From NCBI RefSeq assembly GCF_024298765.1, contig NZ_CP101210.1: a stretch of DNA of 64,000 bases. One strand, given 5' to 3'. The first letter of the stretch is position 1, and each line of letters starts with the position of its first letter. Positions 2,399-51,618 of the stretch are shown here, piece after piece. The translations under genes were made by a program, and so were the position numbers. This DNA comes from Escherichia coli. GTDB taxonomy: Bacteria; Pseudomonadota; Gammaproteobacteria; Enterobacterales; Enterobacteriaceae. The notes beneath the pieces are model-generated. The model made no database searches. It saw nothing but the letters and a program-made list of their open reading frames with translations, and was not told the origin of the DNA.

Positions 2399-2605
2399 GG
2401 GTAGTTAATATCCTGATTTAGCGAAAAATTAAGCATTCAATACGGGTATTGTGGCATGTTTAACCGTTCAGTTGAAGGTTGCGCCTACACTAAGCATAGT
2501 TGTTGATGAATTTTTCAATATCGCCATAGCTTTCAATTATATTTGAAATTTTGTAAAATATTTTTAGTAGCTTAAATGTGATTCAACATCACTGGAGAAA
2601 GTCTT

Positions 2606-16408: not shown

Positions 16409-16602
16409 GTAACCTCCTATGCACCTTCACACGTCGTGATTCAGACGGGTTAATTGTTCATACTTACTGCATCGTTCCCTTCACAGATTGAAACAATACT
16501 CTACTTCATACCTGTGAGTATCTGCGCAGGCGGGGCATTTTATACTAGCCTGTTAGCAGTATCGAACAGTTTAGCCCGAGTTTAATTCAGCACAGGCTCC
16601 GA

Positions 16603-18117: not shown

Positions 18118-19145
18118 CTCTCATCGACACTGACGGTGACGGACAGTCCCGGGCGAAGAAGTTGCTTTAATTCCTTTGCGTCGTCAAATGCAATCCGTAC
18201 CGGGACACGCTGAACAATTTTGGTGAAATTGCCAGTGGCATTTTCTATCGGAATCAAGCTGAAACTGGCTCCTGTCGCTGGGGAAAGGCTTTCAATGTGA
18301 CCGTGAAACACTTCCCCTTTGAGAATATCAGCACGGATCTCAGCCTTCATTCCTGGCTTCATTCCCGCTATTTGGTTTTCTTTATAATTTGCATCAACCC
18401 ACAACTCACTGACTGGTACAAGTGAAACTAACGATGTGCCGCCTTCCACCCAACTGCCTGTATGGGCGCTGCGGTTTGCGACAATGCCATCAATCGGCGC
18501 ACGAACAAGGGTATATTCCAGATCCAGTAGTGCCTGAGTCAAAGCGGCCTGAACTTCTTCGATACTCGCACGTACGTTTTCTTCCTGAGCAGATAAAACT
18601 GCCAGCCGTTGCTTCTCCACCAGGAAATCGTTCGCGGCTTTGCGCTCCTTTGCTGCGACCTGCTGGTAGTCAAACCTGGCGTTATCAATAATTTGCTGCG
18701 ATATTGCCGCTGATTGTACGAGTTTTTCATAACGTTCAGTATCTCGCAGGCGCTTTTGCTCCTCATGTTTTACTGCCTGCCATGTTTCACTGGCACTTTG
18801 AATTATCGACTGCTGCATCGTAATAGTGGCTTGAATGCTTTCGAGATTGGCTTTTCTACTTTTTATTTTTGCCTCAAGCCTGGCGACATTTGCACGATAA
18901 TCCCGATCATCGAGACGCAGGATAATATCGCCTTTTTTTACGCTCTGATTATCACGCACCTCTATAGCAGAAATATAACCAGAAACTTTACTTGCCACCG
19001 TGGTAATATTACCACCAATGTAAGCATCATCCGTCGTCTGTATAAATCTTCCTTTGCTTACCCACCAGATAAAAAAGACAACGCCAGCCAAAATAATACC
19101 GATCGCTACTACCCCAATAAGCTGTTTTTTAGAAATTATCATCAC
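18114..19145 (-). CDS. HlyD-family membrane fusion protein (EmrA-like periplasmic adaptor)
   Basis: 343-aa ORF: N-terminal TM anchor (VVAIGIILAGVVFFIWW), long coiled-coil region, C-terminal beta-barrel-like domain; translationally coupled to the MFS gene. Confidence 0.8.
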   Translation of the reverse strand: MMIISKKQLIGVVAIGIILAGVVFFIWWVSKGRFIQTTDDAYIGGNITTVASKVSGYISAIEVRDNQSVKKGDIILRLDDRDYRANVARLEAKIKSRKANLESIQATITMQQSIIQSASETWQAVKHEEQKRLRDTERYEKLVQSAAISQQIIDNARFDYQQVAAKERKAANDFLVEKQRLAVLSAQEENVRASIEEVQAALTQALLDLEYTLVRAPIDGIVANRSAHTGSWVEGGTSLVSLVPVSELWVDANYKENQIAGMKPGMKAEIRADILKGEVFHGHIESLSPATGASFSLIPIENATGNFTKIVQRVPVRIAFDDAKELKQLLRPGLSVTVSVDER

Positions 19146-19500
19146 TCTTTACACCGTATATATCCGGAAACTTGCATTCGCCATATTTAAAATTTAACAT
19201 GGCTTATTTGATGATTTCTGACAAAATACCTACTGTAAATGACAATCACACTGCAACCCAAAGCATCACCAGGGCATCACATTATCGGACTGGATTCGGA
19301 ACATCTGAATGGAGGCACAGTTCCCTGGCATAAACATCTCTATGCCCAGTTGCTTTACCCGGCTGAAGGAGTCGTTCGTGTATGGGCTGGAGAAAGCGTC
19401 TGGCTAGTGCATGCCAGCAGCGCGCTTTGGCTGCCCCCACAAATGCCGCATAAGTTTGTTGCGACAGGCAACGTACTTTTAAAAACCGTACTGGTTTCAG

Positions 19501-19509
19501 AAGCGGAAA
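19501..19509. repeat. Left copy of the 9-bp target site duplication (AAGCGGAAA)
   Basis: Identical 9-mer directly abuts both ends of the IS (19501..19509 and 20567..20575). Confidence 0.9.
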
Positions 19510-20566
19510 GGCTTTGTTGAATAAATCAAATTTCGGGTAAGTCTCCCCCGTAGCGGGTTGTGTTTTCAGGCAATACGCACGCTTTCAGGTATACCTGCTT
19601 TCGTCATTTTGTTCAGCGCTCGTACCAGGGCCATAGCCTCCGCAACCTGACCATCGTAGTCACGCAGCGTCAGTGCCCCCCCGAACAGCTGTTTTACCCG
19701 GTACATCGCCGTTTCCGCTATCGAGCGACGGTTGTAATCTGTTGTCCATTTCCACCGCGCATTACTCCCGGTCATTCGCTGATTAGCCACTGCACGGTTA
19801 CGGTCTGCATATTCACCGGGCCAGTAACCCGCACCTTTTCGGGGAGGGATAAGCGCGCTGATTTTCTTACGCCGCAGTTCATCGTGACATAGCCGGGTAT
19901 CGTAAGCGCCATCGGCGGCGGCTGACCTGATTTTCCGGTGGGTTTGCCGGATTAACCCGGGGAAGGCCTCTGAGTCCGTAACGTTGTTCAGCGACAGGTC
20001 TGCACAGATGATTTCATGTGTTTTACTGTCAACGGCGAGATGCAGCTTACGCCAGATACGGCGGCGTTCCTGGCCATGCTTTTTGACTTTCCACTCGCCT
20101 TCACCGAAGACCTTCAGCCCGGTGGAATCAATCACCAGATGTGCGATTTCACCCCGGGTGGGCGTTTTGAAACTGACATTAACCGACTTTGCCCGCCTGC
20201 TGACACAGCTGTAATCCGGGCAGCGTAGCGGAACGTTCATCAGAGAAAAAATGGAATCAATAAAGCCCTGCGCAGCGCGCAGGGTCAGCCTGAATACGCG
20301 TTTAATGACCAGCACAGTCGTGATGGCAAGGTCAGAATAGCGCTGAGGTCTGCCTCGTGAAGAAGGTGTTGCTGACTCATACCAGGCCTGAATAGCTTCA
20401 TCATCCAGCCAGAAAGTTATGGAGCCACGGTTGATGAGGGCTTTATTGTAGGTGGGCCAGTTGGTGATTTTGAACTTTTGCTTTGCCACGGAACGGTCTG
20501 CGTTGTCGGGAAGATACGTGATCTGATCCTTCAACTCAGCAAAAGTTCGATTTATTCAACAAAGCC
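19510..20566 (-). mobile_element. IS903-like insertion sequence (IS5 family, IS903 group), 1057 bp
   Basis: Terminal 18-bp inverted repeats GGCTTTGTTGAATAAATC at 19510..19527 and, inverted, at 20549..20566; right end matches the remembered IS903 end GGCTTTGTTGAATAAATCGAACTTTTGCTGAGTTGAAGGATCAGATC; single transposase ORF; flanked by 9-bp direct repeats. Confidence 0.92.
19566..20534 (-). CDS. IS903-family DDE transposase
   Basis: 322-aa ORF (true start may be internal) resembling the remembered IS903 transposase (e.g. GRPQRYSDLAI..., WRKLHLAVD...THEIICADLSLNNVTD...); transcribed toward the HlyD/MFS genes. Confidence 0.9.
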   Translation of the reverse strand: MKDQITYLPDNADRSVAKQKFKITNWPTYNKALINRGSITFWLDDEAIQAWYESATPSSRGRPQRYSDLAITTVLVIKRVFRLTLRAAQGFIDSIFSLMNVPLRCPDYSCVSRRAKSVNVSFKTPTRGEIAHLVIDSTGLKVFGEGEWKVKKHGQERRRIWRKLHLAVDSKTHEIICADLSLNNVTDSEAFPGLIRQTHRKIRSAAADGAYDTRLCHDELRRKKISALIPPRKGAGYWPGEYADRNRAVANQRMTGSNARWKWTTDYNRRSIAETAMYRVKQLFGGALTLRDYDGQVAEAMALVRALNKMTKAGIPESVRIA

Positions 20567-20575
20567 AAGCGGAAA
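20567..20575. repeat. Right copy of the 9-bp target site duplication (AAGCGGAAA)
   Basis: See left copy. Confidence 0.9.
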
Positions 20576-21190
20576 GTGAAACGCTGGGAAAAGTTTGCTT
20601 CATGACGGGTATTTCACCCCTGTTAAGAGAATTACTAATTGCAATTAACCAACTTCCACCGTCGCAAAGTACCACAGATAAACAACAGTTACGTTTTTCA
20701 GCCCTCGAGACACTGATACTTCAGGAAATAAAAATGGGGGTGAAAATGTCACTTGAACTCCCTTGGCCAAATGATGAGCGGCTACAGCAGCTTTGTGAGA
20801 ATTTGCTAAACAACCAAGGGTATCTGCCAACACTGGATAATCTAGCGGATAAAATTAACGTCAGTAGCCGTACACTCATGCGCTTATTTGTTAAAGAGAC
20901 GGGATTAACATTTCGCCACTGGGTTCAGCAAATGCACGTTATTTCTGCAGTGACGCTTCTTGATGATGGATATTCGTTGACCAAAATTGCCCATCGTCTG
21001 GGCTATGCCTCAGCTGAATCGTTCGGCAATATGTTTAAGCGTCGAACGGGCTACTCGCCCGGTAAATTTACTCGTCGATTAACGATGCATGATTATGCAA
21101 TCACAAGGCAAATGATTTAACTTATATTTTCGTGAAATCTGTCACTGAAGAAAATTGGCAACGGATGGGTAAAACCGTTATAACACTGTC

Positions 21191-27810: not shown

Positions 27811-28710
27811 CTAAACAGCACCTTTATACTTCAGCCTATCTATAAATAATGAGAATGCCGAGCCAGCATGTCGACGGTGTGGATAGTACAGGTGATAACC
27901 GGGTAAATCTGGTGTGAATTTATCCAAAACACGTATCAGTTTTTTTTCTTTAATAGCCCGCTCAACCTGATCATAAGGTAGATACGCCAATCCATGCCCA
28001 TCAATTGCAGCATCAATGATCAGGTCTATCGTATTCAGTAAAAGCTGACCTTCCATGCGAACACGAACTTCACGTCCACCGCGTATTAATCTCCAGCGAT
28101 TTGCTGTACCCGATGTGGGAAGATACAAATTAATTGCCTGATGATCTATTAATTGTGACACTGAGGTTGGAGCACTTCGACGAGAAAAATAATCCGGTGA
28201 GCCAACAATAGCCATTGGTATATCTGGCCCGATTCGAATGGCGATCATATCTTTATCCATCTCCCCACCCAGACGGACGCCTGCATCAAAACGTTCAGAA
28301 ACGACATCGGTCAAACCATAATCAATGGTAAGCTGGATATCAATTTCAGGATGCGATTTCAGGAATGTGCGCATAGCTGGTAACAATATCGTTTTTGCTG
28401 CATGTTCTACAGTAGTAATACGTATTGTCCCGGATGGGCGGTTCTGCAGATCGCTCAGGGATGTCAGGGCAGAATCTATGTCATGCAACATAGGGCCAAG
28501 AACAGACAAAAGATGCTCGCCCGCTTCAGTGGGTACAACGCTGCGCGTGGTTCGTGTCAGAAGCCGCAATCCCAATCGTTCTTCTATACGGCGCACTATC
28601 TGGCTTAAAGCTGACTGCGCCATGCTCAGGCGGGCTGCTGCGCGAGTGAAGCTACGCTCCTCTGCAACGACGACAAACGCCATCAGATCAGCGATTTCTT
28701 CACGCTTCAT
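27811..28710 (-). CDS. pgrR: LysR-family regulator PgrR (YcjZ)
   Basis: 299-aa ORF; N-terminal LysR HTH (FTRAAARLSMAQSALSQ); divergent from ycjY. Confidence 0.92.
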   Translation of the reverse strand: MKREEIADLMAFVVVAEERSFTRAAARLSMAQSALSQIVRRIEERLGLRLLTRTTRSVVPTEAGEHLLSVLGPMLHDIDSALTSLSDLQNRPSGTIRITTVEHAAKTILLPAMRTFLKSHPEIDIQLTIDYGLTDVVSERFDAGVRLGGEMDKDMIAIRIGPDIPMAIVGSPDYFSRRSAPTSVSQLIDHQAINLYLPTSGTANRWRLIRGGREVRVRMEGQLLLNTIDLIIDAAIDGHGLAYLPYDQVERAIKEKKLIRVLDKFTPDLPGYHLYYPHRRHAGSAFSLFIDRLKYKGAV

Positions 28711-37249: not shown

Positions 37250-37403
37250 TGCTGTCCTGTGCTGCTCTGAAGACCAGAAAAAAATCATTCGTAAGGATAT
37301 GAATGTGGGGGCCAGGCCATTGATTATCAACTGCCCGTGTTGTCATCGACGGGCGAACTCCATAAGATGTGCAACATTCACGTTCGGACGGAGTTCCTGA
37401 CCT

Positions 37404-38402
37404 ATGTCCCCTACTATTTATGATATTGCCAGGGTTGCAGGCGTATCAAAATCCACCGTATCACGCGTGCTGAATAAGCAAACCAATATCTCCCCGGAAG
37501 CGCGCGAAAAAGTGTTACGGGCCATTGAAGAATTACAGTATCAACCAAACAAGCTGGCACGCGCGCTGACCTCTTCGGGTTTTGATGCCATTATGGTGAT
37601 TTCTACCCGTTCGACCAAAACTACGGCGGGTAATCCGTTTTTCTCGGAAGTTTTACATGCCATCACCGCCAAAGCTGAAGAAGAAGGTTTCGACGTGATA
37701 TTGCAGACGTCGCACAACCTGGCAGAAGACTTACAAAAATGCGAAAGCAAAATTAAGCAGAAAATGATTAAAGGCATTATTATGCTAAGTTCGCCAGCGG
37801 ATGAGTCATTTTTTGCCCAACTCGATAAATATGATATTCCGGTGGTGGTAATTGGCAAAGTTGAAGGTCAATATGCCCATGTTTATTCTGTCGATACCGA
37901 TAATTTTGGCGACAGCATTGCGTTGACCGATGCGTTAATTGAAAGTGGGCATCAAAATATTGCCTGCCTGCATGCTCCGCTTGATGTCCATGTCTCGGTT
38001 GACCGCGTTAATGGCTATAAGCAAAGTCTGGCTGCGCATAATATTGCAGTGCGTGATGAATGGATTGTTGACGGCGGTTATACCCATGAAACAGCCTTGC
38101 AAGCCGCACGGCAATTATTAAGCCAGTCGCCGTTGCCAGAAGCCGTATTTGCCACTGACAGCCTGAAATTAATGAGCATTTATCGTGCGGCAGCAGAGAA
38201 AAATATTGCTATTCCGCAGCAGTTAGCGGTGGTGGGCTATAGCAATGAAACGCTGTCATTTATTTTAACGCCTGCACCAGGCGGCATCGATGTTCCGACG
38301 CAGGAGTTAGGTCAACAAAGCTGCGAGTTATTATTCCAGCTAATTGCCGGAAAACCGTCACCACAAAATATTACCGTTGCTACGCATATGTCGTTGAAAT
38401 AA
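37404..38402 (+). CDS. ycjW: LacI-family transcriptional repressor YcjW
   Basis: 332-aa ORF; N-terminal LacI HTH ([21 protein letters not shown]). Confidence 0.93.
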
Positions 38403-38408
38403 ATGTAT

Positions 38409-38438
38409 GCCGGATTTGGCGCTCGCCCCGCATCCGGC
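38409..38438. repeat. REP-like palindromic unit between ycjW and ompG
   Basis: gccggatttggcgctcgccccgcatccggc. Confidence 0.6.
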
Positions 38439-38452
38439 AATTTAGCACAATA

Positions 38453-39358
38453 TCAGAACGAGTAATTCACCCCAACACCCGCATAATGGAATTTATCGCT
38501 GTCGCCTTCGTCGTGATCCTGCCACTCAAACGCGTATTCCAGCGAAACGGAAAGACCATTCTGGAAATCATAACCGTAAAATAACCCCACACGGTTAAAA
38601 TCATGGCCTTCACGTTCAATATCATCCTGCCAGTCCCAGTTACTCCAGCGATCCAGCCCAATGCGCGTATACGGCGTCACCGAGTGGTTGCCGAGCGTCA
38701 GCGGCAAATAGGCGCGAATTTCTTGCGTGGAAAACTCACCGTTATTGCGGCTATCATCCATATTGAAACCGCGCTCGAGATAATAGTTCACTCGCAAGGC
38801 AACCGTTTCGTTGAAGGTATATTGCAGACCCGTTTCCGTTTCGACACGGGTATCAGCATAACCGGTCGTATTCAGATCGTTGGCAAATTTATACATCGAC
38901 AGCCAACCGTTGAAACGTAAATCGTCAGTCAGTTTCACATCCCAGTCTGGCGCAATTTTCCAGCGCTGCATATTCGCCGTGTCTTTACCCGGTTCATCAA
39001 CGTAGTGATAACCATAATTACGGAAACCACCAGTCAGACCGAAACTGAAATCATCGCTTTCGAGGAACTGATAATGTACCTCCAGCTCCGGGCGATCAAA
39101 CCACGTTCCACGTTTACCCGCGCTATAATCTACCGGCCCTTCCTGATAATAGGCCAGAGAAATTCTCCACGGCCCGTTGGCGGCATTAAAATAGACAGAA
39201 GGCTCCGCCAGCCCATCCATATCTTCGCCATAACCCTCGACGTTTTCTATTTCGTACATCGCGCCGATATTAAAGTGCCAGTCGTTCTTTTCCTCGGCCT
39301 GTGCGCAGGCCATTCCCGCACACATCACCAGTGCGGTACAGGGTAATAATTTTTTCAT
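38453..39358 (-). CDS. ompG: Outer membrane porin OmpG
   Basis: 301-aa ORF with signal peptide and beta-barrel pattern ending in F. Confidence 0.94.
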   Translation of the reverse strand: MKKLLPCTALVMCAGMACAQAEEKNDWHFNIGAMYEIENVEGYGEDMDGLAEPSVYFNAANGPWRISLAYYQEGPVDYSAGKRGTWFDRPELEVHYQFLESDDFSFGLTGGFRNYGYHYVDEPGKDTANMQRWKIAPDWDVKLTDDLRFNGWLSMYKFANDLNTTGYADTRVETETGLQYTFNETVALRVNYYLERGFNMDDSRNNGEFSTQEIRAYLPLTLGNHSVTPYTRIGLDRWSNWDWQDDIEREGHDFNRVGLFYGYDFQNGLSVSLEYAFEWQDHDEGDSDKFHYAGVGVNYSF

Positions 39359-39402
39359 TATTGTTCCTTGTATTATCCTGGGGGAATGCCTTCCCCCTGT
39401 AT

Positions 39403-40485
39403 TTAGCGAATTGCTATTTCCGTTTCTGCATCAAAGAAATGACATTTAGTCATATCAAAATGAATAGTGATATTTTCTCCTGCATGATAATCATTTAACG
39501 CACCAGCACGGACCACCAGTTCGTGCCCCCCAACCGTGGTGTAGAGCATAAATTCAGCACCGGTTAATTCTGCCACGCTAATTTTGGCGGAAATGTTATT
39601 TTCCTCTTGCGCTTGCGGCTGAATATCTTCCGGGCGTATTCCCATCACAATGGGCTTATGCAAACTTTCCTGTGTTTTCAGAACCGCTAATTTCTCCTCG
39701 GGAATGGTTAATTTAAGCGTTTCCGTAACGAATTTATCGCCATCAATCGTGCCGCGAATAAAATTCATTGCAGGTGATCCTATAAATCCGGCAACAAACA
39801 TATTCGCGGGTTGGTTATAAACCGTTTTCGGCGCACCTACTTGCTGAACAATCCCATCCTTCATAATCACAATCCGCGTCGCCATGGTCATCGCTTCGGT
39901 CTGATCGTGGGTCACGTAGATCATGGTGGTGTTCAGTTTCTGATGCAGCTTGCTGATCTCTGCGCGCATTTGCACGCGCAGCTTGGCATCCAGGTTAGAG
40001 AGCGGCTCATCCATTAAAAACACGCCCGCTTCGCGCACAATCGCCCGCCCAAGCGCCACTCGCTGACGTTGCCCGCCGGAAAGCGCGCCCGGCTTGCGTT
40101 TCAGGTACTCACGCAGGCCGAGAATTTGCGCCGCCCAGTTCACCCGCTCATCAATCACCTCTCTGGCGATTTTTTGCATCTTCAGGCCAAACGCCATGTT
40201 GTCGTAGACCGTCATATGCGGATACAGCGCGTAGTTCTGGAACACCATCGCGATATTGCGTGCTTTGGCTGGAACGTCATTCATTCGTTTGCCGTCGATC
40301 AACAGATCACCGCCGCTGATCTCCTCAAGCCCGGCAATCATACGCAGGGTGGTCGATTTACCGCAGCCCGACGGGCCGACAAACACGATGAACTCTTTAT
40401 CGGCAATCTCCAGGCTGAAGTCCTTCACCACATGCACCTGGTTATCGTAGATCTTTTGAATATGTTGTAACGAAAGCTGTGCCAT
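39403..40485 (-). CDS. ycjV: ABC transporter ATP-binding protein YcjV (MalK-like), intact
   Basis: 360-aa ORF; Walker A GPSGCGKST, signature LSGGQRQR, Walker B FLMDEPLSNLD. Confidence 0.9.
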   Translation of the reverse strand: MAQLSLQHIQKIYDNQVHVVKDFSLEIADKEFIVFVGPSGCGKSTTLRMIAGLEEISGGDLLIDGKRMNDVPAKARNIAMVFQNYALYPHMTVYDNMAFGLKMQKIAREVIDERVNWAAQILGLREYLKRKPGALSGGQRQRVALGRAIVREAGVFLMDEPLSNLDAKLRVQMRAEISKLHQKLNTTMIYVTHDQTEAMTMATRIVIMKDGIVQQVGAPKTVYNQPANMFVAGFIGSPAMNFIRGTIDGDKFVTETLKLTIPEEKLAVLKTQESLHKPIVMGIRPEDIQPQAQEENNISAKISVAELTGAEFMLYTTVGGHELVVRAGALNDYHAGENITIHFDMTKCHFFDAETEIAIR

Positions 40486-40498
40486 GTTGATTCCTTTG

Positions 40499-41158
40499 CT
40501 ATACGTTTTGCCAGAAGGCCGATAACCGCGGCCAGGTCAGGGAGTCCGTTGAGGGCAACAATAATTGCGCCCCGGTTAAGCCCGCGCCGATCCCCACCGA
40601 GCGCATACCGCTGGCGTTAATGGCGTCAATGCCCGCCTGCGCATCTTCAATGCCGATACATGCCTGCGGCGGCACGCCCAGTCCGGCACAGGCGGCGAGA
40701 AAGATTTCCGGGTCCGGTTTCGAGTTTTTAAGTTGGGAAGCGTCCGCGCAGAAGGTGAAAAACTCGCGCAGCTCCAGCGCTGCTAAAATCGTCGGCGCAT
40801 TCAGGGAGACAGAAGCCAGCCCTATAGGGATCTGCTGTGCACGGAGATCTGCCAGCAAATTGCGAATGCCGGGCAGCACAGCATTAACCGTCAGTTCGCG
40901 CAGTGAGTGGACGTAGAGCAGATTTTTGCGATACGCCAGTTGAGCCCTCTCCTGCGGGTTAAAGTCGCCCTCTTTGCCCCCGTGTTGCAGAATGCGCCGC
41001 AGAGACTCATCGCGGCTGATCCCTTTTAGGGATTCGTTAAACTGCGCATCAATGCTGATGCCAATTTCAGCGGCAATCTGCTGCCACGCCTTGAAATGCA
41101 GATGCGCGGTATCGGTGATTACACCATCCAGATCGAAAATTACCCCTTGCAGTTTCAT
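40499..41158 (-). CDS. ycjU: Beta-phosphoglucomutase (HAD superfamily)
   Basis: 219-aa ORF; HAD motif [11 protein letters not shown]. Confidence 0.93.
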
Positions 41159-43422
41159 TCATCCTCCTGATGCGTGGTAGCGGTCCCATTGAAGGGCAAA
41201 ATAAAATCACCCAAACAGAAAACAGATTCTTCAGCCACAGATATAAGCTGCCCGTTCAAACGCAGTGAAACGGGCGCAGAAGTTCGAATCGCAATACGCT
41301 GCGCGTCGAGAGTGACCTGTAATTCGCAGCCCTGCCAGAACAGAGGGAAAGACAACTGTTGCCACTGCTCAGGTAACGCTGGATTGAGATGCAATTCACC
41401 GTTACGCACGCTCACCCCGGCAAAACCCTGAATCGCCCCCAGCCAAATAGCGCCAGTTGCGGCTGCGTGGATACCGTCATCACAGCTATGCGGATCAGCA
41501 CCAAGATCGATTTCAGTCCCCTCCCGCCAGAACTGATAACTTTGCGCCAACAGGCCACAGCGTGCGGCAACAATGCCGTGGATCGCTTTACTCAGTGAAG
41601 AGTCGTGAATGGTGCGCGGTTCATAAAATTGCAGATTGGCAAGACACGATGCCGCTGAGTACTGCTCCGGCAGCATGTAATTGAGCATCACCACATCAGC
41701 TTGTTTGAGGATCTGCATCTCGTTCACTTCTGCGCGTGAATAATCCAGCAGAATGGTTTGCTTCCCCGCCGCCGCTTTGTATTTCGCCAGATTAATCGCT
41801 GGTTTCGCCATAAACGAATCATCCTGCGGCAAAACGCCGTCAGGCTGAATTTCTGGCAGCCGCAGTTCTTTGAGGAATATTTCGGCACGATGAATAAACG
41901 CGTCGTCGCTACAACCAAACTGACGAGCGATATTCAGCGCCTGCTGGACGTTGTAATACGCCATATAGCTGGTGAAGGCGTTATTATTGACATGTTCGGT
42001 ATATTCGTCTGGCCCAATAACATCATGAATTTCCAGACGGTCGTTAACCCTCACCGTGCGGCTAATCCAGAACTTTGCAGTTTCCAGAAGTAGCGCCATG
42101 CCTTCATGAGCAATGAAACTTTCATCCCCCGTGGTCTGCCAGTATTGAACAACCGCCCAGGCGATATCGGCGACCAGATGATGTTCCGCCTGCGCCGAGG
42201 CCACTTTTTGCCGCAGCCCGGTGCGAATGTTAATGGCGGCAAATTCCGGCGTCTCTTCTTCGCCGCTGCGCGCGCTTTCCCACGGAAATAGCGCGCCCTG
42301 CCAGCCGTTGCGTCGCGCTTTCTCCTGCGCGCCTGGCAAGTTGTGCCAGCGATAACGCAGTAAACTTCGGGCAACCGTCGGATCGCTAAACAGATGAAAC
42401 GGCAGTAAAAATACTTCCGTATCCCAGAAAACGTGGCCTTTGTAGCCTTCCCCGGTCAAACCTTTTGCCGCAATACTGCTGCGCTCGTCGTGAGCAGGCG
42501 TCATGATGCGTAGGTGATAAAGCGCATAATCTAACGCTTGCTGATCGTGCGCATCGCCACCGTTTACCGTGATACGACGTTTCTGCCACCATTGACGCCA
42601 GTTTTCTGTGGATGCTGCAAGAAGTTGGTCGTAACTCTGCTGTACATACATTTCAAGCTGACGAAGCGATGCACTGCCCCACTCGTCTAAAGCGACGAGT
42701 CTGTCGTCCCGCCAGTCGATCCACACCCGTTTTTGCAGCGTCAGCGTTTCGCCTGCGTGAAGTTGCGCACTGGTATGTTGCAGCAAGCGGCGCTCTTTGG
42801 CGGTATAGCATTGCTGCACATCACCGCTCACCTTACAGCAACAGCTGATGGCCACATCACTGCGCCCATCCTGGGTGGTGTAGATCCCCTGCATCAGATG
42901 CTGACCAAATACCCGCAACTGGGTTTCGTCGAGATGTTGGCGACCGTGGTTGGTTTGCGTGGCGTCAATGCCTGTTGAAATCAGCACTAACGCGTCGGCG
43001 TCCAGTGGCGTAATAGTGATTTCCAGCGCAATGAGCGGCAGTTGGTCTGCCGAAACAAAGCGACGGCTGACGATGGTGTAACGCGCGCCGTTACTGGTAC
43101 ACCAGACAACGTTGCGGCGTAATTCGCCACTGGCAAAGTCAAGCTCACGCTGCCAGGCTTCGCGGGATAACGAGAAAACCTCACCATTTATGGCAATCTC
43201 CATCCCCACGACATCAGGCAGGTTCACCAGTTCGTTGATTTCACCCTTACCCGCTCGATGATACAGCCCCGCCAGATACATGCCGCGCGTCTGGCGCGTG
43301 TAATCTTCTTCATGGCTGGCGCGAAGCCCAAGATAGCCGTTCCCCTGCGCCATCAGTGAAGCATACTTGTTCAGGGTATGCTGGCTGAAATGGGGTTCTG
43401 ATAACGTTACTGGCCTGGTCAT
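41155..43422 (-). CDS. ycjT: Kojibiose phosphorylase (GH65 family)
   Basis: 755-aa ORF; stop overlaps the ycjU start (ATGA). Confidence 0.93.
41173..41189 (-). promoter_or_regulatory. Copy 1 of a 17-nt repeat (gene-sense ATGGGACCGCTACCACG), 17-33 nt upstream of the ycjU start inside the ycjT 3' end
   Basis: Exact 17-mer also at 51101..51117 upstream of ycjM; imperfect dyad (TGG.A..CG..T.CCA); candidate LacI-type (YcjW) operator. Confidence 0.45.
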
Positions 43423-44474
43423 AATTCAACACGCGTCCCTGTTTCTGCGGATTGATACAACGCCGCCACCAGTTGCTGGATGATGTACCCCTGCTCGGCG
43501 TCGGCTATCATCACGGGCTTGCCCTGTACGTGATTGATAAAGGCTTCCATGCTGCGCAAATGGCGGTTGTCGTCTGCCATTTCCCGTTGCATCAGCGTCA
43601 TTAATTCACCGTTGTTATCGGTGTAGAGATGTGCCGGAAACAGCGTCGCACCGGCTTTATCACCACAAAAGCTGACATTCATAATCGACTGTTCGCGGAT
43701 GTTGAGTGCAAATGACGTTTCCAGCCACAGAATGCCGCCGTTATGAAATTCAATGGTGCCAAACAGCGAATCTTCGACGCTGTAAGTTGCCGGATACCAC
43801 TCGCCAAATTGACCACAGCTCTTTTGTGTGCCGATCTTTTGAAAGCTATGCGCGGTCACGCTTTTCACCGCCGGAAAGCCCAGTACATACATCGCCGCAT
43901 CCAGCATATGAATGCCGATGTCAATAAGCGGCCCGCCGCCCTGCAATTCTTTATTGGTAAAAACGCCCCAGCCGGGAACGCCGCAGCGACGCAGGGCGCG
44001 GGCGGTGGTAACGTAAATCTCTCCCAAAACGCCGTTGGTCACCTGTTCACGCAGCTGTTGCGTATCGAGTGCAAAACGATGGTGAAAGTCGTAGGCCAGC
44101 ACCTTGCCCTGTTTGCGCGCGGTATCGCACATTTCCCGCGCCTGTTCTGGCGTCATGGCGGGCGGTTTTTCGCACATCACATGGCAGCCCGCTTCCAGCG
44201 CCATCAGGGTATGTTCGTAATGAAAACGGTTAGGTGAGCAGACGCTAACCACATCAGGTTTCACCGCCAGCAGCATGGCCTGCGGATCGTCCCACACGGA
44301 TGCATTCCCGTATTTTTCTGCCAGCGCCTGCGCCTGGGAAAGGCGGCTGTCACAGACAGCCACCAGTTCCAGATCGTTGCGGGTGCAGTAGTACGAAGCA
44401 TGAACTTTATCCGCCACCTGGCCCGCGCCTATTATCGCGACCCGCAGCGGAGAGCTTGTCATTGCACTTTTCAC
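43419..44474 (-). CDS. ycjS: Gfo/Idh/MocA-family sugar dehydrogenase (glucoside 3-dehydrogenase)
   Basis: 351-aa ORF; N-terminal Rossmann motif IIGAGQVA. Confidence 0.9.
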   Translation of the reverse strand: MKSAMTSSPLRVAIIGAGQVADKVHASYYCTRNDLELVAVCDSRLSQAQALAEKYGNASVWDDPQAMLLAVKPDVVSVCSPNRFHYEHTLMALEAGCHVMCEKPPAMTPEQAREMCDTARKQGKVLAYDFHHRFALDTQQLREQVTNGVLGEIYVTTARALRRCGVPGWGVFTNKELQGGGPLIDIGIHMLDAAMYVLGFPAVKSVTAHSFQKIGTQKSCGQFGEWYPATYSVEDSLFGTIEFHNGGILWLETSFALNIREQSIMNVSFCGDKAGATLFPAHLYTDNNGELMTLMQREMADDNRHLRSMEAFINHVQGKPVMIADAEQGYIIQQLVAALYQSAETGTRVEL

Positions 44475-44483
44475 AAAGACCTC

Positions 44484-45281
44484 TTAGCAGGTACGCAACC
44501 AGGCCAAAGAATCACGGTACGCCTGGGCTGGATCTTCCGCCCGGATGCGCCCTTCGTACACCACATAGCCCTGATAGTTATCCGCGCGCAGCTGTTCAAA
44601 CAGCGCGTGGAAATCCAGGGTGCCGCTGCCCGGCTGGTAGCGATGGTTATCGGCAATATGCACATGACCGAGCAGGTCGCGGTTGTCATGCAGCGCCTGC
44701 GCCAGGTTATCTTCTTCGATATTCATGTGATAGAAATCGCCGATAATCTGTACATGTTTAAGATCGTTTTCGACGATGTAACGGCGGGCATCGGCGAGGG
44801 TGTTGATCATGTGATCCTGATAACGGTTTAACGGTTCGAGGTACACCACGGTTCCGGTACATGCGGCCACCTTTTCCAGTACGCGCAGGGAATCACTCAC
44901 CATTTTGCGGTCGCCGTCCAGGCTACGCGGCGAGGTCATCGGCGGTAAGCGGAAGGTAAACATGCCCCATGCAGCCGGAACGACGATACCTTTACCGCCC
45001 ACTTCTGCCAGAGCTTCAAGAATGCGTTCGATCTGCTTTAAGCCATTAAGTCGACGCTCCTCGATAAAGTCGCCAATCCAACCGTCATAGCCACCGCAGG
45101 CGGTGGTCACCGGTAAACCGGTTTCTTTGATTGCTGCTTTGACTTCTTCGAGATTGTTGACCAGCAGTTTGCCGTCAATCTCAAAACCATCGAAACCCAT
45201 CTCTTTGATATAACGAAATTTCTCCAGAATGTTTTCCGGAAAGAACGCCTGATTCTGTGTGCCGATTTTCATTTTTTTCAT
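44484..45281 (-). CDS. ycjR: Sugar epimerase/isomerase (xylose isomerase-like TIM barrel)
   Basis: 265-aa ORF; real start may be the internal MKIGTQNQ (262 aa). Confidence 0.9.
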   Translation of the reverse strand: MKKMKIGTQNQAFFPENILEKFRYIKEMGFDGFEIDGKLLVNNLEEVKAAIKETGLPVTTACGGYDGWIGDFIEERRLNGLKQIERILEALAEVGGKGIVVPAAWGMFTFRLPPMTSPRSLDGDRKMVSDSLRVLEKVAACTGTVVYLEPLNRYQDHMINTLADARRYIVENDLKHVQIIGDFYHMNIEEDNLAQALHDNRDLLGHVHIADNHRYQPGSGTLDFHALFEQLRADNYQGYVVYEGRIRAEDPAQAYRDSLAWLRTC

Positions 45282-45290
45282 TCCTTTGAA

Positions 45291-46343
45291 TTAAAACGTA
45301 ACGCCCATTTTGATGCTCTGTTCCGGATGCTGGTCGACATACTGCATGTAGCTTTCCGGGCTGTTAGCAAAGGTCACCACCGGGTCGATTAAATCTTCAC
45401 AATTGAGATAACCGTTCATCAGCAGTTCCCAGCAGGTTTCTTCAATACGCTTGCGACTCCAGCGCGGATAATCCGGGTTCGGCTCGCTGCACGCACGGGA
45501 GAAAACAATTTTGGCGTTGTTGAAATGCGCTTCGCGTCCGAGGTTAAAACCTTCGGCAAACGGTTTGGCAAACGCGACATACGAGATGGTGCCGCCATAT
45601 GCCAGACCTCGTAGCGCCGATTGCAGCGCGTCGGCATAGCCGCTGGTTTCGATAATCACATCGGCACCCTGCTTGCCGGTTAGCGTTTTGATCTCTTTGC
45701 CTACGTCAGTGCCAATGGGGTTAAGGCAGAAATCCGCGCCATGGCGACGGGCAATCTCACAGCGATGGGCGATAGGATCGACGCCAATCACCACCGACGC
45801 GCCAGCACGTTTAGCCAGTTGAATGGCAATTTGACCGATCGCGCCAAGCCCTACCACCACCACAAAATCGCCCACGCGCACATTGGCATCGCGCACGCCG
45901 CTCATGGCAAACTGCGCCGGGTCGTAGCAGACAGCGTTTTTCCACGAACTGCCTTGCGGCATTTTGCGCAGCTTGTAGTTATTCACTGCGTTAATGATGA
46001 CCGTCTCGGAGAGCGGGCCGTAGCCGCATACGCTGTCGCCCACCGCGTAGTCGGTAACGTCGCTGCCGCACTCGATAATGTCGCCAACCACCATGTTGCC
46101 AAGCTGGAATTTGCCAAACTCAATGCCGCGCGGCGCATCTGCCGGACGCGGGGTGAACATCTGCCATTCGCCGTTAAAGTCTTCATCGATAAACGGACTG
46201 GCAGCGCGGAAATCGACCACTTCCGTCCCGTGCTTCGGTGCGCCGAAGCGCACGCGGATCTTCACTTCATTGGCTAAAATCGCCCGATCTTCATACTCAA
46301 CCAGCGCAGCAACGCGCGGTGCTGTGGCTACTAACTTTTTCAT
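45291..46343 (-). CDS. ycjQ: Zinc-dependent MDR-family alcohol/sugar dehydrogenase
   Basis: 350-aa ORF; Rossmann motif GLGAIGQ. Confidence 0.9.
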   Translation of the reverse strand: MKKLVATAPRVAALVEYEDRAILANEVKIRVRFGAPKHGTEVVDFRAASPFIDEDFNGEWQMFTPRPADAPRGIEFGKFQLGNMVVGDIIECGSDVTDYAVGDSVCGYGPLSETVIINAVNNYKLRKMPQGSSWKNAVCYDPAQFAMSGVRDANVRVGDFVVVVGLGAIGQIAIQLAKRAGASVVIGVDPIAHRCEIARRHGADFCLNPIGTDVGKEIKTLTGKQGADVIIETSGYADALQSALRGLAYGGTISYVAFAKPFAEGFNLGREAHFNNAKIVFSRACSEPNPDYPRWSRKRIEETCWELLMNGYLNCEDLIDPVVTFANSPESYMQYVDQHPEQSIKMGVTF

Positions 46344-46373
46344 GTAAAACTCCTTGTAAAGAAACTCGCCGCT

Positions 46374-47216
46374 TTAGCCCTTCACGCCACCGGCGGTCAA
46401 ACCACTCTTAATAAAACGTTCCGAAAGCGCGTACATAATCACCACCGGCAATGCGGTCACCAGCGAGGCCGCCATCATCCGTCCCCAGATGTAATCAGGC
46501 GTACTGAACAGCGCGTTCAGTCCCACAGGTAAGGTGAAATTGCTGGCGCTGGAGAGGAAAATCGACGCAAACAGATAGTCGTTCCACGCCACCATAAAGC
46601 AGTAGACGAACACGGATATCAGCCCGGACATCGCCAGGGGCACGGTGATACGGAAGATGATTTGCAGACGGTTGAGGCCATCCATCATCGCCGCTTCTTC
46701 GATCTCATCAGGGATGGTGTCGAAGTAGCTTTTCAGCATAAACACGGCGGTGGGCAGGGTTTGCGTCACCATGGTAATGATCAGCGCCATCTCGGTGTCG
46801 TAAATACCAAGCGCGGTGATGATTTTGAACAGCGGCACCACCAGCAAAATGCCAGAGAACATGTACACCGTGTAAAAGCTGGCGTTGATGGTCATCCGGC
46901 CTTTAAAGCGCAGGCGGGAAAGCGCGTAAGCTCCGAGAATGCCGAGAAATACCGCCACCACGGATGAAACCACCGACACCACCATGCTGTTACGGAAGTA
47001 GTCGACAAACGGGAAAATCATCGGGTTAAAAATGTCGACATAATGCTCCAGCGTCCACTGTTGCGGCAGCAGCGTAGGATGCAGCGAGATCGCCTCTTTT
47101 GCGCTCTTGAACGAGGTCATCAGCATCACAAAAAACGGAAACAGCGTGATGATGAGAAACAGCGCCAGCCCGCAGTAAAAACCGATGCGACTGAGTGTGC
47201 GTTTATTTGTTGCCAT
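46374..47216 (-). CDS. ycjP: ABC transporter permease (MalG-like)
   Basis: 280-aa polytopic membrane ORF; overlaps ycjO 3' end. Confidence 0.9.
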   Translation of the reverse strand: MATNKRTLSRIGFYCGLALFLIITLFPFFVMLMTSFKSAKEAISLHPTLLPQQWTLEHYVDIFNPMIFPFVDYFRNSMVVSVVSSVVAVFLGILGAYALSRLRFKGRMTINASFYTVYMFSGILLVVPLFKIITALGIYDTEMALIITMVTQTLPTAVFMLKSYFDTIPDEIEEAAMMDGLNRLQIIFRITVPLAMSGLISVFVYCFMVAWNDYLFASIFLSSASNFTLPVGLNALFSTPDYIWGRMMAASLVTALPVVIMYALSERFIKSGLTAGGVKG

Positions 47217-48084
47217 TGAGGTTCACCCGTTTTCTGGTCAGCAGAATGACAGCGAAAATAATGATGAAGAGCACCACTGAGATCGCCGCCGCTTTCCCTA
47301 AGTCATTAAAGGCAAAGGCGGTTTTGTAGAGATAGACACCGAGAATATCGACCTTGGTCGTCAGCAGATAAACATCCGCGAACATGTAGAACATCCAGAT
47401 GGTGCGCAGGGTCACCACCGTCGCCAGGACCGGCATAATCGCGGGCAGCGTGACGATACGAAACCGTTGCCAGGCATTAGCGCCATCCATCTCTGCCGCT
47501 TCGTACAGCGATTTGTCGATGGTCTGCAAAATCGCCAGAAACGAAATAAAGGCATACGGGAAGTAGCGCCAGATGGCGAACAGCACCACCAGCACAAAGC
47601 TACTGCCCGGATTATCGAACCACAGCGGTGCCTGCTCATAGAGATGCAGAAGATCGACGCCGAGGTAGTTCACAATGCCGTAACCGTTGTTGAACATGTA
47701 TTTCCAGGCGAACACCAGCGAAATAGACGGCGTTACGTAGGAGAGGATCACCAGCGAACGCGCGGTTTTGCGCAGGCGGAACTCGCGGTTGAAAAACATC
47801 GCCACGGCCAGCCCGAGCACGGCGCTGCCCGCCACCACCAGTGTGGTATACCAGACCGTCATCCACAGCGAGTGCCAGAAGCCGGGATCGGAGAGAATAC
47901 GCACGTAGTTGCTCACCCCAACAAACGTTGACTCGATGTTGGGATTAAGCGGCAGACGTAAAAAACTGATTTCGATATTCGACACCATCGGCCACGCCAC
48001 CAGACCGCCCAGCAGTAATAAGCTGGGCGCGAGAAGCAACAGCGCAAAGGGCATATCGGAACGACCTGAAAAAAGCCTGTTCAT
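47203..48084 (-). CDS. ycjO: ABC transporter permease (MalF-like)
   Basis: 293-aa polytopic membrane ORF. Confidence 0.9.
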   Translation of the reverse strand: MNRLFSGRSDMPFALLLLAPSLLLLGGLVAWPMVSNIEISFLRLPLNPNIESTFVGVSNYVRILSDPGFWHSLWMTVWYTTLVVAGSAVLGLAVAMFFNREFRLRKTARSLVILSYVTPSISLVFAWKYMFNNGYGIVNYLGVDLLHLYEQAPLWFDNPGSSFVLVVLFAIWRYFPYAFISFLAILQTIDKSLYEAAEMDGANAWQRFRIVTLPAIMPVLATVVTLRTIWMFYMFADVYLLTTKVDILGVYLYKTAFAFNDLGKAAAISVVLFIIIFAVILLTRKRVNLNGNK

Positions 48085-48104
48085 TGCGGATTCCTGTCCT
48101 GGGT

Positions 48105-49397
48105 TTAGCGCTGTTCAACCAACTCATCCAGCTTTTTCTGGCTCGTTTGCAGCGTGCCAGGGAGGTCGGCTTTACCCACGGTGACGTTATGCACCATGGA
48201 GCTCACCACGCCAGAACCCGTCACATCGCCCATGCGGGTAAAATTTTTATCCCCTACTGCGCCAAAGACCTGAATATTTGGCAGTTCGCTGATTAACTGA
48301 TTTGGCAGCTCACCCAGCGCCTTAATAACGTCGTTGTCTTTCCAGGTGGCGGTAGTGACAACCGCTTTGTTCACCGGCAGCGCCGCGCCTGGCGACATCA
48401 TCACCCAGTCGGCAATGTTGTCTGCCTGCTCCATAAAGGTGACAAATTTTTCAGCCGCTTCCGTCTCTTCGGCCTTTTGCCCGGCGGTAATGGTCAGCGA
48501 GGTCAACATGCCGTAGACCGCAGAGTTTTTCTCGGTGGGTACAACGAAACCAACGTTTTTCGGATCGCCCTCTTTAATCACAGCCGGAAGGATATAGGTG
48601 GAGTAAATCGCCATCGGCGCGGTGCCGTTCATAAAAGCGTCTTTCACTTCCATGATGTCGTTAGAACCCGGCATGGTGTTGGCAGCAAGGTCGCGGTAAT
48701 AGGTCAGCGCCTGCATCATCTCTGGGGTATCAAGGGTGATTTTGCCTTCGGCGTTAAAGACGTTAGCCTGATTGGATAACGCAAACTGGGAGAAAGATTG
48801 TTCCGTCAGCACACTTTCTGCCGTAGGCAGTGCAATGCCATATTTTTTATTCGCCGGGTCATTCAGTTTCTGCGCGACATCCAGCAATTGCTGCCAGTTT
48901 TTCGGCTCCTCCAGCCCGGCTTTTGCCAGCACATCTTTGCGATACCAGATGCCGCCAATCCATGCGCTCACGGGAACACCGGTCCAGGCGCTGCCATCTT
49001 CGGTGCGCACAATACGCAGTACGCCATCGTAGAACGCGCCTTCACCAACGTTGCTGATGACCGTGGCAACCGCTTTACGATCGATAAGCTGCTCTTTGTC
49101 CATAACTTTGGCGTAGTCATGGCTGGTTTCGATCACTTCCGGCAGCGAGCCGCTACGTGACAGGGTTATGACTTTGGTGTTATAGGCATCTTCTTCCACT
49201 GGCACTTGTTTAACGGTGATGCCCGGGTTTTCTTTTTCAAAACGGGCAATCAATTTACTGATAACGGCCTGGCGCTCCTGCTCCACCGAAGAATGCATAA
49301 ATTCGATGGATACATGGGTTTTATTTTCTTCTTTACAGCCTGAAATCAGGGCGCAGGAAACCAGTGCTGATAACAGCACGATTTTTGATTTAATCAT
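48105..49397 (-). CDS. ycjN: Periplasmic sugar-binding protein of the ABC transporter
   Basis: 430-aa ORF with lipoprotein-type signal (LISGC). Confidence 0.9.
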   Translation of the reverse strand: MIKSKIVLLSALVSCALISGCKEENKTHVSIEFMHSSVEQERQAVISKLIARFEKENPGITVKQVPVEEDAYNTKVITLSRSGSLPEVIETSHDYAKVMDKEQLIDRKAVATVISNVGEGAFYDGVLRIVRTEDGSAWTGVPVSAWIGGIWYRKDVLAKAGLEEPKNWQQLLDVAQKLNDPANKKYGIALPTAESVLTEQSFSQFALSNQANVFNAEGKITLDTPEMMQALTYYRDLAANTMPGSNDIMEVKDAFMNGTAPMAIYSTYILPAVIKEGDPKNVGFVVPTEKNSAVYGMLTSLTITAGQKAEETEAAEKFVTFMEQADNIADWVMMSPGAALPVNKAVVTTATWKDNDVIKALGELPNQLISELPNIQVFGAVGDKNFTRMGDVTGSGVVSSMVHNVTVGKADLPGTLQTSQKKLDELVEQR

Positions 49398-49410
49398 GAG
49401 ATGTTCCTTT

Positions 49411-51090
49411 TTATTTAATCCACATAACCTGCCAGGGGCGCAGCGTTATTTCATTACCCAATATATCAACTTCACTAATCAGATCCCGACCATGCAGATC
49501 AGTAATATTTATATGCTGAATATTTTCACTGACATTAAACAATCCTGTCAGACAATTACCATCCGCGTTGCTTCTTTGAATACACATTACGGATGAATTA
49601 ACCGTATCGATGGTAAAATCATTATCCGGATGAAACTCGTTATGGCTGCGACGAAGTGTAATTAAACGCGACAACTGATGATATACCGCATGCCTTAATG
49701 TAGCTTCATCGTTCAGTTCCTGTGTTATCTCTTCACTGTGATATTTTTTACGGTTAATCGCACGGTTATATCCGAGTTTTTCGACACCTGCGTAATCATT
49801 ACGCGAGCCCAGAATACTTTGAATATATATCGCTGGCACACCGGGGAAACTTAACAAAATCGCACGGGCAAGGATAAACCTGGCACAACGTTCTACATCG
49901 CTACTCTCGCGGCGGCTTAACGCATCCATATAGGTGACATTTATTTCATAGGGACTGCGCGTACCGTCGGGATTATTTTTCCAGTTTACTAATGCACCTT
50001 CCTGCTGTAATGCCTCGACCAGCGCTAATATTTCGCTTTCTGGTAACAAGCCACGCAGTGGGTTCAACCCGATGCCATCGTGAGAGGCGAGGAAGTTAAA
50101 CCAGGTGGTGTTGCTGGAAGGTAGTGTCAGGTTTTGCGCCCACGCACAAAGCGCCTCAACGTTCTGTTTTTGCACCGCATGCAGCACCAGCGGCGGCAGC
50201 GAGAACTGGTACACCATATGCGCTTCGTCATCGCCTTCGCCAAAGTAAGCAATGTTGTCTTTATGCGGAACATTGGTCTCGGTAATGATCACTGTACCTG
50301 GTGCTACGTCATCAATAATCGACCATAACAGCTTGATAATCAGATGTGTTTTTTCCAGATGGATGCAGCTTGTTCCTGGCTCTTTCCACATAAAGCCAAC
50401 GGCATCCAGCCGGACATATTCTGCGCCCTTTTCCAGGTAGCACAGCAATACATCCACCATCGCCAGCAACACTTCAGGGCTACGGTAATTGAGGTCAATT
50501 TGATCGTCGCTAAAGGTGGTCCATAAATGGCGCGTGGAATTATCGCGCATCTGGAATGGCGTTAATAACGGTAACGCACGCGGGCGAGTGACGGCGCTGA
50601 GATCGGTTTGCGGGTCAACGGCAATAAAAAAATCTTCAAAACCTGGCTGCTGTTGTAAATAGTTTTTAAACCATTCACTTTTTGCCGACATATGGTTGCA
50701 GACAAAATCAAACATTAAATGACTGCATTCACCGAGTTGCTGAATATCCTGCCACTCCCCCGCTTCACTGGCGACCTGATGATAATCAATTACCGAAAAG
50801 CCATCATCAGATGACCATGGATAAAACGGCAACAAATGAACATGTGAAAAAATGCTTTGAAGCCATTGAGGGTAAAACTGATTAAATGTGGGTAGTGGTT
50901 TTAAATCATTACTGTGAAATTGATCAGCATAGGTAATTAACACGACATCACTTTCATCCCAGTGTTTTTTACGTCGCTGTGTAATTAATCGTTTCGCACT
51001 CTCAAGACGCGTTACAAGTTTCTGTAAATGAGTTGCGGTAAATGTTCCACCGTAGATTTCGTCCAGGTAATCCGTAATTTTCTGTTCCAT
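49411..51090 (-). CDS. ycjM: GH13 sucrose-phosphorylase-like enzyme (glucosylglycerate phosphorylase)
   Basis: ORF 49411..51117; start preferred at MEQKITDYLDEIYGG (559 aa). Confidence 0.92.
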   Translation of the reverse strand: MEQKITDYLDEIYGGTFTATHLQKLVTRLESAKRLITQRRKKHWDESDVVLITYADQFHSNDLKPLPTFNQFYPQWLQSIFSHVHLLPFYPWSSDDGFSVIDYHQVASEAGEWQDIQQLGECSHLMFDFVCNHMSAKSEWFKNYLQQQPGFEDFFIAVDPQTDLSAVTRPRALPLLTPFQMRDNSTRHLWTTFSDDQIDLNYRSPEVLLAMVDVLLCYLEKGAEYVRLDAVGFMWKEPGTSCIHLEKTHLIIKLLWSIIDDVAPGTVIITETNVPHKDNIAYFGEGDDEAHMVYQFSLPPLVLHAVQKQNVEALCAWAQNLTLPSSNTTWFNFLASHDGIGLNPLRGLLPESEILALVEALQQEGALVNWKNNPDGTRSPYEINVTYMDALSRRESSDVERCARFILARAILLSFPGVPAIYIQSILGSRNDYAGVEKLGYNRAINRKKYHSEEITQELNDEATLRHAVYHQLSRLITLRRSHNEFHPDNDFTIDTVNSSVMCIQRSNADGNCLTGLFNVSENIQHINITDLHGRDLISEVDILGNEITLRPWQVMWIK

Positions 51091-51100
51091 GTTGCCTTTC

Positions 51101-51117
51101 CGTGGTAGCGGTCCCAT
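51101..51117 (-). promoter_or_regulatory. Copy 2 of the 17-nt repeat, 11-27 nt upstream of the ycjM start codon
   Basis: See copy 1. Confidence 0.45.
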
Positions 51118-51303
51118 GAAACGAGAGACTACTCCGCAGAAAATAAACTGTCAATTGAGCACAAGGGTTTTAGTCACGCAGGAAATCATTTTTTACCAGG
51201 GAAAAAGCGTATTTGTGAGCTGACGCAAATAATCTATGGGGATGTACATAAGGTGTGACAGAAAAAGTAAACGGCGCATAAGCGCCGCTTAGGGTGGATT
51301 CTT

Positions 51304-51618
51304 TTAACCTTTGACCTTCGGCATTGCGATGTCTTTCAGGCCACCGGCGTTCTCAACGTGGGTATATCCCATCTCGCTAAGGATCTCTTTTGCCTGCCCT
51401 GACTGGCGTCCGGCATTGCAATACACTTTCACGGTGTCGTTTTTATCCGGAACGGCGGTGGCAATGCGCTCTTTCACTTCCTTCAGGGGAATATTGATGG
51501 CCCCCTGAACGTGCTCTTGCTGATACTGCTCAGGAACACGAACATCGATCCAGTGTTCAGCGGCGAAAACGGGCAGTGAAAACACCAGTGTCAGAGCAAG
51601 TAAGCCTTTTTTAAACAT
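51304..51618 (-). CDS. pspE: Periplasmic thiosulfate sulfurtransferase (rhodanese) PspE
   Basis: 104-aa ORF with signal peptide; active-site Cys in CNAGRQS. Confidence 0.95.
   Translation of the reverse strand: MFKKGLLALTLVFSLPVFAAEHWIDVRVPEQYQQEHVQGAINIPLKEVKERIATAVPDKNDTVKVYCNAGRQSGQAKEILSEMGYTHVENAGGLKDIAMPKVKG

Follow-up and report, generated by a model that had tools for sequence, protein, structure and literature searches.

The ATPase subunits MalK and UgpC of Escherichia coli have the same domain architecture and motifs as YcjV. Work by Hekstra and Tommassen dating from 1993 is said to have found that MalK and UgpC are interchangeable between their systems. YcjV differs from both in that it is encoded in a different operon and goes with a different binding protein. 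The best relative of solved structure is MsmX of Bacillus subtilis (PDB 6YIR), a multitask ATPase that combines an ABC domain with the OB/TOBE architecture as YcjV does and that aligns with it over the full length. MsmX is the product of an orphan gene and serves several importers, whereas the gene for YcjV lies inside its own operon. The sequence identity between YcjV and MsmX is 64%, and an intact YcjV, identified by its BL21 accession, has been expressed in B. subtilis, where it accumulated; it was purified and was active as an ATPase in vitro (PMC7658222).

The genes ycjMNOPQRSTUV-ompG form an operon that is repressed by YcjW (PMC6599011). In the reference annotation of E. coli K-12 MG1655 (NC_000913.3) the ycjV locus is split into two pseudogenes, ycjV b1318 (1380821-1381789) and ymjB b4524 (1381789-1381902). 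The literature routinely terms the K-12 gene a pseudogene, and metabolic engineering makes use of it as a neutral site for chromosomal integration (PMC10380740); the locus has also been used for integration without being labeled a pseudogene (PMC11731478). The ycjV frameshift of K-12 is not mentioned in three open-access papers on the cluster (PMC6599011, PMC11543891, PMC13053599), and a literature search for 'ymjB' found nothing relevant.

Here we describe the ycjV gene in a stretch of 64,000 nucleotides of E. coli DNA (contig NZ_CP101210.1 of assembly GCF_024298765.1), called the window below. The gene is in all likelihood the ordinary, ancestral and intact E. coli allele, and K-12 differs by the loss of a single G from a tract of six (G6). 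The comparison with K-12, BL21(DE3) and the complete genomes of the species bears on an earlier sequence-only reading of the window, in which the intact gene was taken as a reason to prefer this strain over K-12 for work on the ycj pathway.

The ycj cluster in the window

The cluster ycjMNOPQRSTUV-ompG/ycjW is complete in the window, with ycjM to ycjV and ompG all on the minus strand (Table 1). The products of ycjM, N, O, P, Q, R, S, T and U and of ompG and ycjW are full length and align with the K-12 proteins without gaps. Genes for a binding protein and for two permeases with EAA loops accompany ycjV. The sequence-only reading had taken the set of transporter genes to be complete, which holds for YcjN, YcjO, YcjP and YcjV and extends to OmpG, YcjW and both presumed operators. 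Lipidation of YcjN at C21 has been reported (PMC11543891). YcjW ChIP peaks have been reported at sites that match both copies of the 14-bp sequence TGGGACCGCTACCA, including one 'between ycjT and ycjU' (PMC6599011). K-12 has the same sequence as the window in the 3'-most 177 nt of the pspE-ycjM intergenic region, which end at the ycjM ATG.

Table 1. Positions in the window of ycjV, its G6 tract and the surrounding ycj genes and presumed operators
Feature	Position	Strand	Remarks
ycjW, LacI-family repressor, 332 aa	37404..38402	plus	divergent, intact
ompG, monomeric porin, 301 aa	38453..39358	minus	
ycjV	39403..40485	minus	intact 360-aa ATPase subunit of predicted YcjNOP-V ABC importer; ATG-to-TAA ORF
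G6 tract, Gly319-Gly320 codons, gene nt 955-960	39526..39531	minus	CCCCCC on plus strand; K-12 deletion site
ycjU/pgmB, beta-phosphoglucomutase	40499..41158	minus	
ycjT, kojibiose phosphorylase, 755 aa	41155..43422	minus	full length; 96.4% aa identity to K-12, gapless
presumed YcjW operator 2	41175..41188	minus	second exact copy of TGGGACCGCTACCA; ycjT/ycjU junction
ycjS, 351 aa	43419..44474	minus	
ycjR, 262 aa	44484..45272	minus	start as in K-12
ycjQ, 350 aa	45291..46343	minus	
ycjP, permease, 280 aa	46374..47216	minus	EAA loop EAAMMDG at residue 174
ycjO, permease, 293 aa	47203..48084	minus	EAA loop EAAEMDGA at residue 195
ycjN, lipoprotein substrate-binding protein, 430 aa	48105..49397	minus	lipobox LISGC (Cys21)
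ycjM, glucosylglycerate phosphorylase, 559 aa	49411..51090	minus	K-12 start
presumed YcjW operator 1	51103..51116	minus	14-bp imperfect palindrome TGGGACCGCTACCA; directly upstream of ycjM start

Over positions 37250-51306 the cluster has 553 nucleotide mismatches to that of K-12, a divergence of 3.9% in 14 kb, and YcjM and YcjT share about 96% of their residues with the K-12 proteins. The divergence may be high for E. coli core genes, and the cluster may be a recombinant or lineage-specific allele.

Two of the intergenic regions deserve a separate description. In the interval where ompG and ycjW converge (38403-38455), the window lacks about 60 bases with REP-like sequence (GCCGGATAAG...) that are present in K-12. 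Much of the 44-nt spacer between ycjV and ompG is occupied by a strong GC hairpin of 7 pairs (GGGGGAATGCCTTCCCCC, 39380-39397), which has no T-run on the coding (minus) strand and is therefore not terminator-like; it could have an effect on ompG translation or on mRNA stability. A consensus scan around ycjV-ompG gave 3 promoter-like matches compared to a shuffle mean of 3.6, which is no excess. The corresponding scan for terminators gave 8 matches where about 3 were expected, none of which would end transcription of the minus strand in the ycjV-ompG spacer; there the scan brought up only the hairpin.

The YcjV subunit

A Shine-Dalgarno-like AAGGAA is found just 5' of the ycjV ATG, and the gene is flanked by the ycjU stop codon, 13 nt upstream, and the start of ompG, 44 nt downstream. 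Pfam profiles place an ABC_tran domain at residues 21-162 (E 1e-31), OB_MalK at 236-288 (full profile, 1-53) and TOBE_2 at 282-351, the latter covering positions 2-76 of a profile of 76, so that the C-terminal OB/TOBE domain is complete. The sequence motifs comprise the Walker A sequence GPSGCGKS (37-44), the Q-loop glutamine Q83, the signature LSGGQ (135-139), the Walker B sequence VFLMDE with the catalytic Glu (155-160), the D-loop SNLD (163-166) and the H-loop histidine H193. Open reading frame, domains and motif positions thus agree with the sequence-only reading, which had described an intact protein of 360 residues with all canonical motifs and had named no strand.

With NCBIfam models the protein passes the cutoff of the UgpC subfamily NF008653 (484.3 bits, cutoff 432) and stays below that of the MalK equivalog NF008233 (427.6 bits, cutoff 568), which makes it MalK-like but not MalK. 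The score below the MalK cutoff, together with the different operon and binding protein, makes YcjV a paralogue of MalK and UgpC rather than either of the two. The closest solved structure is that of MsmX, with an end-to-end alignment (E 1.6e-146). Based on these sequence matches in Pfam, NCBIfam and the PDB, the assignment of YcjV as a predicted type I ABC importer ATPase of the MalK/UgpC/MsmX (CUT1) kind is unambiguous.

The window YcjV is 100% identical to the product of genes annotated as 'ABC transporter ATP-binding protein' (WP_000068008.1), and over 1.5 kb around the gene many complete genomes match the window at 100% identity, among them those of strain 104 and 2014C-3338 and of several APEC O78:H4 strains. 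In these genomes the gene sits between pgmB and ompG. The window ycjV is a real gene, well beyond chance, and its collinear position between ycjU/pgmB and ompG and its high identity indicate that it is the E. coli ycjV orthologue. The YcjV of BL21(DE3) (WP_000057985.1; NC_012971.2 1367187-1368269) has the same position between pgmB and ompG, the same length of 360 residues and the G6 tract. The two genes differ at 36 of 1083 nucleotides and the proteins at five residues, the changes from window to BL21 being S24N, R108K, A232S, Q289H and Q291D, none of which is in a catalytic motif.

The lesion in K-12

The K-12 pieces ycjV' (b1318) and ymjB (b4524) form the orthologous locus with the same neighbors, and their annotation as pseudogenes bears out what the sequence-only reading had stated about K-12. 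A pairwise alignment of the window ycjV with NC_000913.3 1380821-1381902, the comparison proposed in that reading, located the lesion. The two sequences differ by 36 substitutions and one indel over 1083 nt (96.6% nucleotide identity), and the indel is a 1-bp deletion that leaves K-12 with five G's (G5) at 1381775-1381779 where the window has G6. The K-12 gene is thus frameshifted and substituted, rather than full length and identical to that of the window. No other indel between the window and K-12 falls inside a coding sequence anywhere in the 14-kb cluster.

The frameshift leads to Thr321-Ser322-stop (...VGGTS*), giving a product of 322 residues from which the 40 residues 321-360 are lost. 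The truncated protein still has a complete ATPase core (1-235) and a portion of the C-terminal domain but loses about half of the TOBE_2 match (282-351). From the sequence, truncation at residue 320 would probably cause loss of function of ycjV in K-12. The last 37 amino acids are still encoded, unchanged, in the ymjB frame of K-12, which marks the lesion as recent. When a single G is added to the K-12 gene it becomes identical to ycjV of BL21(DE3) (0 differences in 1083 nt), which makes the lesion a single, evolutionarily recent event on a common haplotype. Between the window and this K-12/BL21 allele, which differ at 36 nucleotides and five residues, 29 codon differences are synonymous and 5 are non-synonymous, indicating purifying selection on ycjV.

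Distribution of intact and frameshifted alleles

A 35-mer across the G6 tract has an exact match in 4,582 of 5,426 complete E. coli genomes, and the 34-mer with G5 has one in 374; the one-difference band of the G6 and G5 tract searches, with 4,584 and 399 genomes, provided a mutual cross-check. The intact G6 form is present in about 92% of the E. coli genomes that carry ycjV. An intact ycjV is the species norm and not a trait of this strain. The intact gene therefore does not set the window strain apart, since about 92% of the carriers, the standard laboratory strain BL21(DE3) included, are intact as well. The window haplotype itself belongs to a minority, with 72 of about 5,006 genomes being at least 99% identical over the ycjV region. 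The ycjV region has no match in about 420 of the 5,426 complete genomes, and 6-7 matches to it are on records labeled as plasmids.

Among the G5 matches listed (60 of 374), nearly all are K-12 derivatives, such as MG1655, DH5alpha, DH1, C600, J53 and NCM3722. Outside K-12 the G5 form occurs in at least 17 genomes of wild isolates, which is a lower bound. Sixteen of the genomes with G5 have a common 3' segment, that of 2014C-3051; their sources are cattle, humans and one wild bird, and they were contributed by more than one laboratory. The set includes ten bovine OkiPb isolates, the O22:H8 isolate RM10809-3, EC6622, PEC1011 and FCI51, and the non-K-12 genomes with G5 also include 2014C-3051 and 08-00022. 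The ten OkiPb genomes look clonal and may therefore count as one G5 event. In 95-3192 the G5 form is found on an O145-type haplotype of which the listed O145 relatives all have G6. Compared pairwise, four of the G5 ycjV sequences differ from each other at 5-23 sites, and PGAP flags these genes as frameshifted. Some of the cases outside K-12 may be assembly errors.

Other features of the window

An IS903/IS102-like insertion sequence of roughly 1,057 bp is located at 19501-20576, with terminal inverted repeats GGCTTTGTTGAATAAATC..., a transposase ORF on the minus strand (19566-20534) and a flanking direct repeat of 9-10 bp (AAGCGGAAAG). It splits an AraC-family regulator gene into halves at 19239-19520 and 20602-21120, adjoining an HlyD/DHA2-MFS efflux pair. 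Strain 104, in other respects almost identical, lacks the insertion. The split gene lies in the smrA-ogt interval (about 16600-21100), where both the window strain and strain 104 have a DHA2-MFS/HlyD/AraC-regulator island and where only remnants of abgR and abgT are left, whereas the K-12-like BL21 has the full abgABT-abgR operon. The MFS gene of this island carries a PGAP-flagged frameshift in strain 104, with which the window aligns there without gaps. At the pgrR/ycjZ position (27811-28710, minus strand) a LysR-family regulator gene is intact in the window, whereas in the near-identical strain 104 it is broken by an ISVsa5/IS10-type element.

Proposed role of YcjV and alternative explanations

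Sugar import by the ycj system most likely proceeds by the following route. OmpG would pass the sugar across the outer membrane, after which the lipoprotein YcjN would deliver it to the permeases. A YcjV homodimer would dock on the EAA loops of the YcjO/YcjP heterodimer and hydrolyze ATP, which would lead to import of a glucoside-type sugar. YcjW represses the whole ycjM-V-ompG operon, presumably at the two 14-bp operators. Assembly of YcjV with YcjOP and its transport activity are predicted from sequence, and a glucoside-type cargo is likewise a prediction. For the more specific cargo named in the sequence-only reading, of the kojibiose/glucosylglycerate type, support was not obtained; in a published nanoDSF screen, which did not include glucosylglycerate or gulosides, none of the sugars tried, kojibiose, glucose and maltose among them, produced a thermal shift of purified YcjN (PMC11543891).

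The role of YcjV could be wider than this if, like MsmX, MsmK and MsiK, it energized several CUT1 sugar importers as a multitask ATPase, in which case the integrity of the gene would matter beyond the ycj system. The 64% identity to MsmX (PMC7658222), which is the nearest solved relative and the top structure match, would be consistent with such a role. However, ycjV is not an orphan but is located within its own transporter operon, and in the alignment the four charged signature residues of multitask ATPases, D77, R104, E110 and K154 in MsmX, are absent, with N77, Q104, V110 and G154 in the window YcjV instead. Moreover, the YcjV with the BL21 accession could not replace MsmX in B. subtilis (PMC7658222). 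We consider a multitask role highly improbable and reject it because of where the gene lies, which residues it has at the signature positions and how the published complementation test failed. A different view concerns the lesion itself. The G6 tract could be a slippage hot spot by which ycjV is repeatedly switched off in nature, as a contingency-like mechanism or an adaptive loss, with K-12 being one instance. That the same G5 frameshift is found outside K-12, in the genomes with the 2014C-3051 segment and in 95-3192, and that the G5 sequences are on different haplotypes would fit this explanation, and the same G-tract deletion recurring in wild B1-type isolates would hint at repeated natural loss. 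Yet six bases make a short tract for phase variation, few genomes other than those of K-12 have G5 (at least 17, compared to about 4,582 with G6), and the singleton pattern of 95-3192 fits a homopolymer assembly error equally well, which makes repeated slippage improbable.

It is more conceivable, although still doubtful, that in practice nothing depends on the gene being intact. The cluster would then be cryptic, or the truncated YcjV of 322 residues, or MalK or UgpC, would compensate in K-12. If MalK and UgpC are interchangeable, K-12 might still energize YcjOP, and the truncated product itself keeps its entire ATPase core (1-235) along with some of the C-terminal domain. In the cryptic version, YcjW would repress the cluster tightly under all tested conditions. 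Kojibiose releases YcjW from DNA in vitro, but the authors doubt that it is the natural inducer, and K-12 did not grow on minimal medium with kojibiose, with no improvement when the operon was derepressed by deletion of ycjW (PMC6599011). These observations, as well as the undetectable binding of kojibiose by YcjN (PMC11543891), agree with a cluster in which the intact ATPase is of little consequence, and the window strain would then be no better background than K-12. On the other hand, the excess of synonymous (29) over non-synonymous (5) differences and the presence of G6 in about 92% of the carriers indicate selection for the full-length protein, and loss of about half of the TOBE_2 match should disrupt the beta-barrel. 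The opposite claim is that the missing G in K-12 ycjV is the very reason for the lack of growth on kojibiose and for the elusiveness of the physiological substrate of the ycj pathway. We regard this as rather unlikely; if it were true, uptake would become measurable and the substrate identifiable in K-12 after repair of the one base, or in BL21 or in any wild strain, that of the window included.

Implications for studies of the ycj pathway

The preferred explanation remains that the window carries the ordinary intact allele and that the defect is on the side of K-12. Both the intact gene and the pseudogene status in K-12 are already known, from the reference annotation and from the metabolic-engineering literature. 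Since the K-12 pseudogene is on record and an intact gene is the species norm, the intact gene in the window carries little weight as a discovery, and the window strain offers nothing beyond BL21(DE3) for work on the ycj genes. What the comparison does make clear is that ycj physiology based on K-12, including studies on kojibiose, glucosylglycerate and gulosides and the search for ligands of YcjN, uses a strain with a frameshifted importer ATPase. The cleanest control for such work would be BL21(DE3), of which ycjV equals that of K-12 apart from one G, or K-12 itself with the missing base put back. The one-base defect is a cheap candidate explanation for the failure of K-12 on sugars of the ycj pathway.
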